From a virus (Duplodnaviria; Heunggongvirae; Uroviricota; Caudoviricetes): DNA of 6,184 nt. The number at the start of each line of letters is the position of its first letter. Within the stretch, counting starts at the first letter, position 1. Shown here piece by piece: positions 3,466 to 5,162 of the stretch. The stretch is from IMG/VR virus record IMGVR_UViG_2713896791_000023; one strand, written 5' to 3'. Both the position numbers and the translations under genes were made by a program. The notes below the pieces were generated by a model. That model was not told where the DNA came from. It saw only the letters and a list, made by a program, of their open reading frames with translations, and searched no databases.

Positions 3466-3934
3466 GGTTAACCTCCTGCGGCGGTTCCGGTAGCGGCATC
3501 CAGTGTGTGGCCTGTTCAATACCATTACCATCAATACCATTACCAGGCGCAACCGTTATCTGCCCACGCCGAAAGGTGCTTCCTGTATAGCGTGCGGAGC
3601 ATATTAGCGGTTCTACCAGAGATCTATCGAAATTCACCGAAATAAGCACATTCTGGTTCTTTTCAGGCATTCGCTCACTACAGCTTATCCAACCATCCGG
3701 AGTTACCGTAGAGTTGCCCGACAGCTCGTTCAACTTGTAAGTCTGGCTTACAAGTTCGGCACCATGAAGCATGGCGGCGCGGAGTTTCTGTATCTCCCGT
3801 GCCATTATTGCGTCCTGACGAGGAGTGAACATATCACCTGCAATAATTCTGTTTAGTTCCTCGTCAGTGAACTCATAATTATCAGGAACATTGTGAACCT
3901 CAGCATAAAGAGGCTTTTTGGTAGAAATGGTCAT
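3458..3934 (-). CDS. DUF551-like phage protein, 158 aa.
   Basis: ATG at 3934 overlaps the upstream stop (ATGA). The C-terminal region (WISCSERMPEKNQNVLISV...THWMPLPEPP) matches my recollection of the DUF551 signature. Confidence 0.7.
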   Translation of the reverse strand: MTISTKKPLYAEVHNVPDNYEFTDEELNRIIAGDMFTPRQDAIMAREIQKLRAAMLHGAELVSQTYKLNELSGNSTVTPDGWISCSERMPEKNQNVLISVNFDRSLVEPLICSARYTGSTFRRGQITVAPGNGIDGNGIEQATHWMPLPEPPQEVNRG

Positions 3935-4509
3935 CGTAAAACACCCTCCGCACTTACCAGTCCGTTTCGCAAAAGATAATCCATCGCCCTATCTGGTAAT
4001 TTGCAATCAGGTTTTGCTTTTTTCAGTTGGCTGACCAATTGTTTAACCAGCATTGTTAATTCGATAACCTGGTAGCGCGGCAATGGTGAATTATCGGATT
4101 TGCCCTGGCTGTCATCGCGGCATGAATACCCTTCCAGCCAGGCCAATGCTTGTCGCATGAAATACGCAATATGTTTGCCGTGATAATCGCCTTCATCGAT
4201 GTGAAAAGCGATACTGCGGATGTATTCAATTGCGTTTTCAATGGCCTCCGACGATATCGGTGCAGGTGAGGCAGCATAAACAGAAATCACGTCCGGTTGT
4301 TCTTTATTGCTTTCATCGGTCAACGACCAGAATAATTTTCCGGCTGGATGTTTGAAAATATAAGCAATTGGTTCTGCTTCCAGTGATGCCAGCGCGATTT
4401 TGTATACTTCCAGATCCATTTGTGCAGTTACTAAATCAGGATAACGATCCATAACCGTTATATTGCGCTTAATTATCTCTATTAATTGTTCTTTAGTAAA
4501 AGTGGTCAT
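3931..4509 (-). CDS. Hypothetical phage protein 'A', 192 aa; paralog of the ORF at 4719..5162 over its N-terminal ~90 aa.
   Basis: ATG at 4509 with a GAGG RBS. The N-terminal domain (MTTFTKEQLIEI...KIALASLEAEPIAYI...VISVYAASPAP) aligns with that of the paralog (MTTITKERLLTI...RIALAALEAEPIGAF...IIEVYAAPPVP). The 5' nucleotide sequences are also similar. Confidence 0.75.
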   Translation of the reverse strand: MTTFTKEQLIEIIKRNITVMDRYPDLVTAQMDLEVYKIALASLEAEPIAYIFKHPAGKLFWSLTDESNKEQPDVISVYAASPAPISSEAIENAIEYIRSIAFHIDEGDYHGKHIAYFMRQALAWLEGYSCRDDSQGKSDNSPLPRYQVIELTMLVKQLVSQLKKAKPDCKLPDRAMDYLLRNGLVSAEGVLR

Positions 4510-4519
4510 TCGTTATGCC

Positions 4520-4717
4520 TCAATACACAAAATCTGTTTTAAATTCATGGTTACATTCTGGGCAGCATGTTTCGTAACCTTTTATTTCTTCACATGCCTG
4601 TTTTGCTCCAGAAAATTCCCAGAAATCAGCATCGCAAAGCAGATCGAAATTGTGGCCGCATTTTGGGCATTCAGTATCAAGTGATAAACTCCAGTAAGCA
4701 GGTGTGTTTTTGTCCAT
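4520..4717 (-). CDS. Small Cys-rich zinc-ribbon-like protein, 65 aa (MDKNTPAYWSL...ECPKCGH...CCPECNHEF...).
   Basis: ATG at 4717 with an AAGGAG RBS 6 nt upstream. It has CxxC ... CCxxC motifs. The ORF-track start at 4750 is upstream of the RBS and overlaps the preceding gene. Confidence 0.6.
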   Translation of the reverse strand: MDKNTPAYWSLSLDTECPKCGHNFDLLCDADFWEFSGAKQACEEIKGYETCCPECNHEFKTDFVY

Positions 4718-4718
4718 A

Positions 4719-5162
4719 TCACTCTCCTTTCCCCTGAAGCATAGCGGCACGGCAGGCGTTCCAGCCTCTCACCTCTGCAATAGCGGCAACAGCATNNNNN
4801 NNNNNNNNNNNNNNNNNNNNNNNNNNNNNNNNNNNNNNNNNNNNNACAGCATCAACCGCGTACATGCTAAGAGGATTAGGCATTGGTTTTTCTTCCGGTA
4901 CTACTGGAACGGGGGGAGCGGCGTAGACCTCAATAATTCCATTATCAATAGGCCATTCTCCATCCTTGAGGTAGTCACTTGTGCCGTCAACTTGCTGTTC
5001 TGCAATGTGGAATGCACCTATTGGTTCAGCTTCCAGCGCTGCCAGAGCAATCCGTGCCAGTTCTTCCGCTTCTTCTGCTGGCAGTACAACGTTGCTACCA
5101 GGTCCGTATGTTTCGCGCCACTGCTTGATTGTCAGCAGTCGCTCTTTGGTAATAGTGGTCAT
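4719..5162 (-). CDS. Hypothetical phage protein 'B', about 147 aa, paralog of 'A'; interrupted by the 50-N gap.
   Basis: ATG at 5162 overlaps the upstream stop (ATGA), with a GAGGA RBS. It shares the N-terminal domain with 'A'. The reading frame is preserved across the N-run if the run is exactly 50 nt. Confidence 0.65.
   Translation of the reverse strand: MTTITKERLLTIKQWRETYGPGSNVVLPAEEAEELARIALAALEAEPIGAFHIAEQQVDGTSDYLKDGEWPIDNGIIEVYAAPPVPVVPEEKPMPNPLSMYAVDAXXXXXXXXXXXXXXXXXXAVAAIAEVRGWNACRAAMLQGKGE
4796..4845. other. Run of 50 N: unresolved or masked sequence.
   Basis: Read directly from the sequence. The 7-mer ACAGCAT sits immediately on both sides of the run (4789-4795 and 4846-4852). 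Confidence 0.99.

Follow-up and report, generated by a model that had tools for sequence, protein, structure and literature searches.

The window analysed here, a stretch of 6,184 nucleotides (nt) from the virus record IMGVR_UViG_2713896791_000023 (Caudoviricetes), carries two minus-strand genes, A and B, whose products share an N-terminal module, called the head below. Gene A (3931-4509) encodes a protein of 192 amino acids (aa), identical to WP_001434920.1, in which an EaA-type head (aa 1-85) is followed by a conserved helical C-terminal domain (aa 86-192). Gene B (4719-5162) encodes an EaA-type head (aa 1-87), a Pro-rich linker and a '...GWNACRAAMLQGKGE' tail, and lacks the DUF551 domain that most of its close relatives carry.

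The true length of B is 128 aa. An earlier reading of the DNA made from its letters (hereafter the sequence-only reading) gave A correctly as 192 aa and B as 147 aa. The latter value arises because the open reading frame (ORF) of B contains a filler of 50 N (4796-4845) with a 7-nt duplication (ATGCTGT) in its flanks, which together add 57 nt, or 19 false codons. The filler stands for no real sequence and matches no bases in four complete Escherichia coli genomes, in which its surroundings are 99-100% identical. The 128-aa protein matches a cluster of the same length (P0001; 212 member sequences) at 98% identity. A second run of exactly 50 N (5476-5525) replaces 37 real bases, and the 168-aa ORF at 5380-5886, which is read across it, has a false length. 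N fillers in draft assemblies can insert false codons, as in B.

Pairwise alignment of A and B extends well past the first residues, with 37% identity over 92 aa by BLASTP (E=3e-9) and a Smith-Waterman score of 95, compared with 29.2 +/- 4.8 for 1,000 shuffles (z=13.6), none of which reached it. The C-termini are unrelated (z=0.5 versus shuffles). A common N-terminal module with unrelated C-termini, proposed in the sequence-only reading, is therefore borne out, as is the claimed similarity of the 5' nucleotide sequences. This similarity continues through the Shine-Dalgarno region to ~17 nt before the ATG, in a 37-nt direct repeat (D2; 84% identity) at 4490-4526 (start of A) and 5143-5179 (start of B). 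The proposed extent of the module, about 90 aa, holds in that similarity is significant over the first ~90 residues, but the whole signal lies in three motifs with unrelated sequence between them: MTT(F/I)TKE(Q/R)L (aa 1-9), (K/R)IALA(S/A)LEAEPI (aa 37-48) and VYAA(S/P)P(A/V)P. Between the motifs, the segments of 27 aa and 28-30 aa fall short of the shuffle mean (z=-0.7 and -1.2, respectively), and nucleotide identity is 78%, 76% and 56% within the motifs versus 36% and 31% between them. Judged by these comparisons, the likeness of A and B is not that of a diverged 90-aa domain.

Elements of the two heads occur in the same order on the minus strand. The start motif is MTTFTKEQL in A (4483-4509) and MTTITKERL in B (5136-5162), each forming repeat D2 together with the ~17 nt upstream. 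The helix cassettes (aa 10-36 in both proteins; 4402-4482 in A and 5055-5135 in B) are unrelated in sequence and lead to junction motif 1, which is KIALASLEAEPI in A (4366-4401) and RIALAALEAEPI in B (5019-5054). Beta cassettes follow at 4282-4365 in A (aa 49-76, AYIFKHPAGKLFW...) and 4929-5018 in B (aa 49-78, GAFHIAEQQVDG...). Junction motif 2, comprising the strand end and a Pro-rich linker, is VYAASPAPI in A (4255-4281) and VYAAPPVPV in B (4902-4928).

Structure prediction, which the sequence-only reading had suggested for the shared domain, gave a common secondary-structure layout, although in models of low confidence. The mean AlphaFold2 predicted local distance difference test score (pLDDT) was 54.8 for A (20-sequence alignment) and 60.8 for the B head (42-sequence alignment), with a predicted template modelling score of ~0.3. 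Both low-confidence models contain a helix (residues ~6-20), a loop, a second helix (~27-44) and short strands, to which A adds four further helices. A Foldseek search of the PDB with the low-confidence A model gave no hit at E<=0.001 (template modelling score <=0.3), and the same model matched only uncharacterised phage proteins in BFVD; given its poor quality, both outcomes were taken as uninformative. PDB sequence searches with A, with P0034 (a head-DUF551 fusion described below) and with a 42-sequence head profile gave no match. Both proteins are acidic, with isoelectric points of 5.4 (A) and 4.5 (B), and neither contains a hydrophobic stretch long enough for a transmembrane segment. PADLOC defence models matched nothing in A, and a single PglZ match in B (14.7 bits, E=0.0018) was taken as chance level.

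The head module and its cassettes

No Pfam or NCBIfam model, including PF04448 and PF13935, matched A or B. Residues 1-192 of A match positions 3-193 of the 193 in phrog_660 (E=4.8e-40), residues 1-82 of B match positions 1-84 of the 90 in phrog_3323 (2.9e-22) and residues 1-145 of the N-padded B match positions 1-124 of the 125 in phrog_5117 (4e-19). In addition, both heads match positions 116-183 of phrog_60. These four PHROGs, all labelled 'unknown function', are clustering-derived and have no functional or domain-level description, and the cassette structure of the head explains why it is split over several of them.

A head profile built from 11 sequences (A, B and nine relatives) recovered A (8.4e-30), B (9.2e-24) and EaA of phage P22 (1e-12). 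Among 1.84 billion cluster representatives (50%-identity clusters), it matched 2,734 at E<=1e-3 and 574 at E<=1e-10. The head lies nearly always at residue 1 of the matching proteins (104-457 aa), many of which consist of the head only (104-150 aa). The C-terminal parts of 146 head-bearing representatives comprised DUF551 (39), a dATP/dGTP pyrophosphohydrolase (three) or Lar (one), while 103 had no Pfam domain. DUF551 is thus frequent in the EaA family but does not define it, since only 39 of the 146 possess it. Relatives of B are overwhelmingly 195-223-aa proteins annotated as 'DUF551 domain-containing' or 'Eaa', consisting of essentially all of B and then DUF551, and those of A include a very common 205-aa 'Eaa protein', P0161, found on at least 999 contigs. 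By sequence, then, both A and B belong to the EaA family, whose N-terminal module is the head. Enterobacterial phages and prophages carry the head very commonly, and it had not previously been described as a domain.

Across relatives, the order of head elements is a start motif, a helix-loop-helix cassette, an IALASLEAEP motif, a small beta cassette and a strand end with the sequence (L/V)Y(A/T)APPxP, which continues into a Pro-rich linker. Different C-terminal modules follow the linker: A has its conserved helical domain, and B has only the '...GWNACRAAMLQ' linker that normally leads into DUF551. Individual relatives recombine these parts in several ways. P0161 combines the first 48 residues of B with a different beta cassette and the C-terminal domain of A, and P0125 carries the helix cassette of B and all else of A. 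P0040 contains the whole of B followed by a variant of the last ~50 residues of A, and P0034 consists of the B head and linker joined to the DUF551 domain of the gene downstream of A. In P0235, an exoribonuclease fragment is joined to the C-terminus of A. The C-terminal 108 residues are almost invariant in the A family, and the head segments vary. Longer family members resemble beads on a string, with a repeated "AEPVAW ... LYTAPPAP" unit and further joints at "ACRAAMLQ" and "NSPV(I/T)PDGW".

A broader sample was obtained by fetching 80 IMG/VR loci with degenerate patterns for two of the motifs. Classed by string similarity, 42 unique genes from these loci contained nine helix, nine beta and 14 C-terminal classes in 31 combinations. 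The B-type helix cassette was joined to eight different beta cassettes, the B-type beta cassette to eight different helix cassettes and the B-type head to seven C-terminal classes, so that the survey of C-terminal variants proposed in the sequence-only reading found many alternative C-terminal parts. The tblastn matches to the B head stop at query residues 28, 49, 59-63 or 77. Multicopy arrangements recur, with two or three head-bearing ORFs within 3 kb in 12 of 81 loci. Within cassettes, the ratio of nonsynonymous to synonymous polymorphism (pN/pS) was 0.16 for the B-type helix (22 sequences), 0.15 for a second helix class (three sequences) and 0.10 for the B-type beta cassette (13 sequences). 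By this measure, cassettes are constrained coding sequences under purifying selection, and their diversity would not come from amino acid substitutions.

The distribution of individual parts extends beyond the exo-xis region, the segment of lambdoid phage genomes that holds A and B. The beta cassette of A with its flanking motifs (residues 44-81) has ~80% aa identity to sequences in ~145-kb Justusliebigvirus-type phages, e.g., vB_EcoM_ESCO9 and KKE7M, and because it is present there the cassette is not confined to temperate lambdoid phages. The P0125 gene (L082-L085, 3001-3579) follows DUF1064, DUF4752 and Ead_Ea22 genes, and only a few small genes separate it from the gene for a small terminase subunit downstream; because of this position near terminase, EaA-family genes also live outside the exo-xis region. 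Origin of P0125 by a deletion between B and A in the present prophage was considered and rejected, as its context is that of a different phage, near terminase.

The motifs that frame the cassettes are plausible crossover points. In gene pairs with both flanking cassettes different, aa identity is 0.86-1.0 across IALASLEAEP and <=0.45 on either side (<=0.31 upstream). Codons within this motif are shared above the level predicted from codon usage (typically 0.5-0.7 versus 0.2-0.5), yet they are not fixed, and the motif is therefore conserved mainly at the protein level. Over motif 1, stretches of identical nucleotides are 12 nt long at the median and 35 nt at most, reaching at least 23 nt in five of 78 pairs, compared with a median of 3 nt and a maximum of 6 nt in control cassette sequence. 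Published values for the shortest segment that pairs efficiently are 23-27 bp (Red-beta) and 31-34 bp (RecA) (PMC3945230). Because exact runs reach the Red-beta pairing length, the junctions are plausible crossover points for some partners.

The start junction includes a loosely conserved AGGA-N-TAAC-NN-ATGACCAC translation start region found behind at least 10 different upstream genes. In the window, a perfect 17-nt direct repeat, AAAGGAGAGTGATATGG (minus strand), occurs at 4714-4730 and 5365-5381; it encodes Lys-Gly-Glu-stop with an embedded Shine-Dalgarno sequence, followed by ATG, and marks two different gene boundaries. As the Ea22-like protein of the prophage has a similar ending, '...KGGE', and EaD of P22 ends in '...KGE', this KGE-stop sequence looks like a recurrent gene-boundary joint.

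Prophage setting and neighbouring genes

The stretch from 3400 to 5500 is 100% identical to E. coli O45:H2 FWSEC0003 (NZ_CP031916.1) and two other complete genomes and 99.2% identical to a fourth. The window opens with wrbA (1-579, minus strand), which is followed by genes for a tyrosine integrase (576-1910) and an excisionase (1939-2238) and then by a string of small minus-strand ORFs. In FWSEC0003, the order is int, xis, ..., DUF551, A, Zn-ribbon gene, B, ..., Ea22-like, ..., exo, bet, gam, kil and cIII. The window is the early-left "ea" or exo-xis region of a lambdoid, Shiga toxin (Stx)-type prophage inserted at wrbA, as shown by wrbA, integrase and excisionase within it and by the continuation in FWSEC0003 into Ead/Ea22-like, exo, bet, gam, kil and cIII genes. 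Phage records match the region patchily by megablast: 436 records match pieces and none covers 80% of the region, which is the usual mosaic pattern of the exo-xis region.

A and B belong to a tightly packed, co-oriented gene string, in agreement with their placement in one operon by the sequence-only reading. The ATG of B overlaps the stop codon of an upstream 69-aa gene (ATGA, 5159-5162), and its own stop codon lies 1 nt from the ATG of a 65-aa CxxC...CxxC zinc-ribbon-like gene (4520-4717, minus strand; phrog_4173). The latter gene ends 10 nt before A, and the stop codon of A overlaps the ATG of a DUF551 gene (ATGA, 3931-3934). A promoter and terminator scan of the window found no minus-strand terminator-like site, with nothing above shuffle expectation, and an Rfam scan of the window found no RNA family. 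The zinc-ribbon-like gene is in the same transcription unit as A and B, and its linkage to head genes is inconsistent. Small Cys-rich or zinc-ribbon genes were considered as obligate partners of head genes, and the idea was dropped as too weak (six of 69 upstream neighbours versus 30 of 815 background small ORFs).

The DUF551 gene directly after A (3458-3934, minus strand) scores 77.4 bits against Pfam PF04448 (cutoff, 22), and P0034 carries an almost identical DUF551 domain behind a B-type head. It begins with MTISTKK (3913-3934; ATGACCATTTCTACCAAAAAG), which resembles the head start motif MTTITKE in both protein and DNA and may be left over from the start junction, although the remainder of its N-terminus does not match the head profile. 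At 3516-3545, a perfect tandem duplication of 15 nt, in frame and five codons long, gives GNGIDGNGIE in place of the GNGIE of P0034.

Further genes of the prophage also contain repeats or paralogues. A DUF1627 protein gene (2885-3274, minus strand) has a tandem repeat of six perfect 9-nt units (3028-3081) encoding (PVQ)x6, which separates a helix-turn-helix (HTH)-like N-terminal part from a basic C-terminal helix. The layout is the same as that of phi24B Gp05, with a winged HTH, a PVQ repeat and a coiled coil (PMC8614690). A local all-against-all BLASTP comparison of prophage proteins (E<1) gave significant pairs only for A and B and for two DUF1382 genes, at 3310-3525 (minus strand) and L001 9636-9827, which form a second paralogous pair (52% identity over 31 aa, E=1.4e-8). 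The first of these overlaps the 3' end of the DUF551 gene in a different frame, and the second is found near exo, beyond the window. The 3' part of an Ead/Ea22-like gene (minus strand; 257 aa in the complete genome) extends from 5723 to beyond 6184, past the window end, and the 79-aa ORF at 5723-5962 is merely its C-terminal piece.

Origin of the pair and comparison with known systems

Membership of A and B in the EaA family, together with cassette exchange as the evolutionary mechanism, is very probable, and the favoured explanation as a whole, including its functional part, is probable. A and B would be independent assortments of cassettes from a pool shared among enterobacterial phages rather than products of on-the-spot duplication and divergence. 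Cassettes would be exchanged by homologous or homeologous recombination at short conserved junctions that coincide with domain and gene boundaries, and these phages carry Red recombination genes in the same operon. The functional part is tentative. A and B may both be expressed early from pL, and their products may be acidic and soluble, reside in the cytoplasm and work through binding to host or phage proteins, with the head providing a shared scaffold or unit of oligomerisation and specificity coming from the cassettes and C-terminal modules. As nonessential modulators of host physiology or of the lysis-lysogeny decision, they would resemble other exo-xis genes, and it is by this analogy that a role as early accessory proteins acting through protein-protein contacts is conceivable, if doubtful. 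An extension of this proposal is a long shot: the head might be a two-slot combinatorial recognition module (helix by beta), whose junctions (the translation start region, IALASLEAEP, YxAPPxP and AAMLQ) are kept also as recombination signals for Red-type reshuffling of host-targeting or antidefence adaptors among co-resident prophages, with two or three copies broadening the range of targets.

Several observations weigh against parts of the favoured explanation. No experiment or characterised homologue shows a function for the EaA family, and the functional model is by analogy with other exo-xis genes. The poor structure models leave the fold and the oligomerisation role unproven, with only the secondary-structure layout usable. 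The string-similarity threshold that set the cassette classes is crude, and the pairwise statistics lack phylogenetic independence. Synonymous sites within the junction motifs vary, and the role of these motifs as recombination sites is a plausible consequence of their conservation, not its demonstrated cause. The longest exact run between A and B at motif 1 is only 8 nt, and with so few identical nucleotides in a row the two genes are unlikely to recombine with each other. Finally, NCBI PGAP marks B as 'missing C-terminus' and the DUF551 gene as 'missing N-terminus', both as partial pseudogenes (L001 7572-7706 and 6059-6322, respectively). Both are nevertheless intact ORFs, and the calls probably arise from mosaic proteins matching reference proteins in part only.

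The PGAP flag ('incomplete, missing C-terminus') would also suit an origin of B, and perhaps A, as a decaying remnant, i.e., a truncated EaA/DUF551 gene left by recombination and without function. Most close relatives run on into DUF551 exactly where B ends, and odd fusions such as P0235 show that junk joints occur. However, the 128-aa ORF is intact and has 212 members of the same length in cluster P0001, and the same GKGE-stop junction is also the end point of a second lineage (P0100; 133 aa, 24 contigs). Furthermore, the start codon of B shares an ATGA with the stop of the gene upstream, the Shine-Dalgarno sequence for the following gene lies within the last codons of B, the low pN/pS of its cassettes indicates constraint, and head-only proteins of its size are common among the representatives. 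Decay is unlikely on this evidence.

Also unlikely is the specificity system under diversifying selection that was suggested by the sequence-only reading, taken here to mean a constant N-terminal module docking to a common partner, with fast-evolving C-termini for different targets. Association of the B-type head with seven C-terminal classes, the fusion of heads to DUF551, MazZ-like pyrophosphohydrolase and Lar, the existence of multicopy loci and the acidity of the proteins, which is shared with many phage inhibitor proteins, are all compatible with such a system. The head is not constant, however: variation in its two cassettes is as great as in the C-termini, and it is the C-terminal 108 aa that stay nearly unchanged in the A family. 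The pN/pS values (0.10-0.16) indicate purifying rather than positive selection on substitutions, with diversity arising from cassette exchange. In addition, there is no match to any defence or antidefence model, and no partner is known.

Local tandem duplication followed by drift of a single ~90-aa head domain and later replacement of the C-termini, the origin implied when the genes were described as a diverged paralogous pair, is disfavoured and very unlikely: the genes are ~600 bp apart in one orientation and one operon, the 37-nt and 17-nt direct repeats at gene boundaries have near-equal spacing (653 and 651 nt) and several other loci have two or three head genes close together, but the inter-motif segments retain no similarity (31-36% nucleotide identity, against 76-78% in the first two motifs), each cassette recurs in closely similar form with different partners in other phages, and A and B occur together in only four of 5,426 complete E. 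coli genomes, whereas A alone is found on 153 contigs.

Under cassette exchange, A and B appear to be ordinary members of a large, recombination-shuffled EaA family of lambdoid accessory proteins. Current views are not overturned. The exo-xis region is known to affect lysogeny and induction of Stx prophages. Useful by-products are the motif-framed cassette architecture and the recognition that the head, despite 2,734 matching cluster representatives, has no Pfam or NCBIfam model, for which reason head-only genes like B are called "hypothetical" or misflagged as pseudogene fragments. The family is a clean example of sub-gene mosaicism, in which short boundary motifs frame interchangeable cassettes, and could be a test bed for Red-mediated homeologous exchange. 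Partial or full gene duplications (PMC8614690) and mosaic proteins with exchanged C-terminal domains (PMC10834534) have been described in the exo-xis regions of Stx phages, and the motif-framed cassette picture fits this known mosaic region.

The closest named relatives are as uncharacterised as A and B, and the literature on EaA, DUF551 and the exo-xis region yielded no functional study of EaA or the head; a Gifsy-1 paper mentions an eaa homologue in passing. EaA of P22 (NP_059588, 317 aa) has the head sequence MTTITKERIELF...ARIALASLDAE...PLYAAPPVP, starting with MTTITKE, and continues with a long middle region and DUF551. L0065 of 933W (207 aa), annotated as 'similar to EaA of P22', consists of a head and then DUF551; the layout of its head is the same, but the middle motif has diverged (EIALTALTTEP) and the strand-end motif is weaker. 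The usual annotation of the two is 'EaA/Eaa protein' or 'DUF551 domain-containing protein'. Both genes occupy the early-left position between the recombination genes and xis/int, as do A and B. P22 EaA and L0065 end in DUF551, whereas A ends in a different helical domain and B stops at the linker before DUF551.

Proteins with DUF551 (PF04448), such as YfdS of E. coli CPS-53, are linked to the pair through the nearest relatives of B, which are fusions of the head to DUF551, although A and B themselves lack this domain. DUF551 is a portable domain in exo-xis proteins (PMC10834534), and the stress phenotypes reported for YfdS (PMC4776307) concern the DUF551 part rather than the head. Ea22 and its Stx-phage variants (Ead_Ea22, PF13935) are encoded in the same region, with an Ea22-like gene just upstream in the window. 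These variants have a common N-terminal segment and exchanged portable acidic C-terminal domains, including DUF551, in mosaic genes (PMC10834534). The logic of this architecture is like that of A and B but without a sequence relation, as neither A nor B matches PF13935 or has BLASTP similarity to the Ea22-like protein of the prophage. Ea22 contains a long coiled coil; the EaA head, by contrast, combines a short helix-loop-helix with a beta unit.

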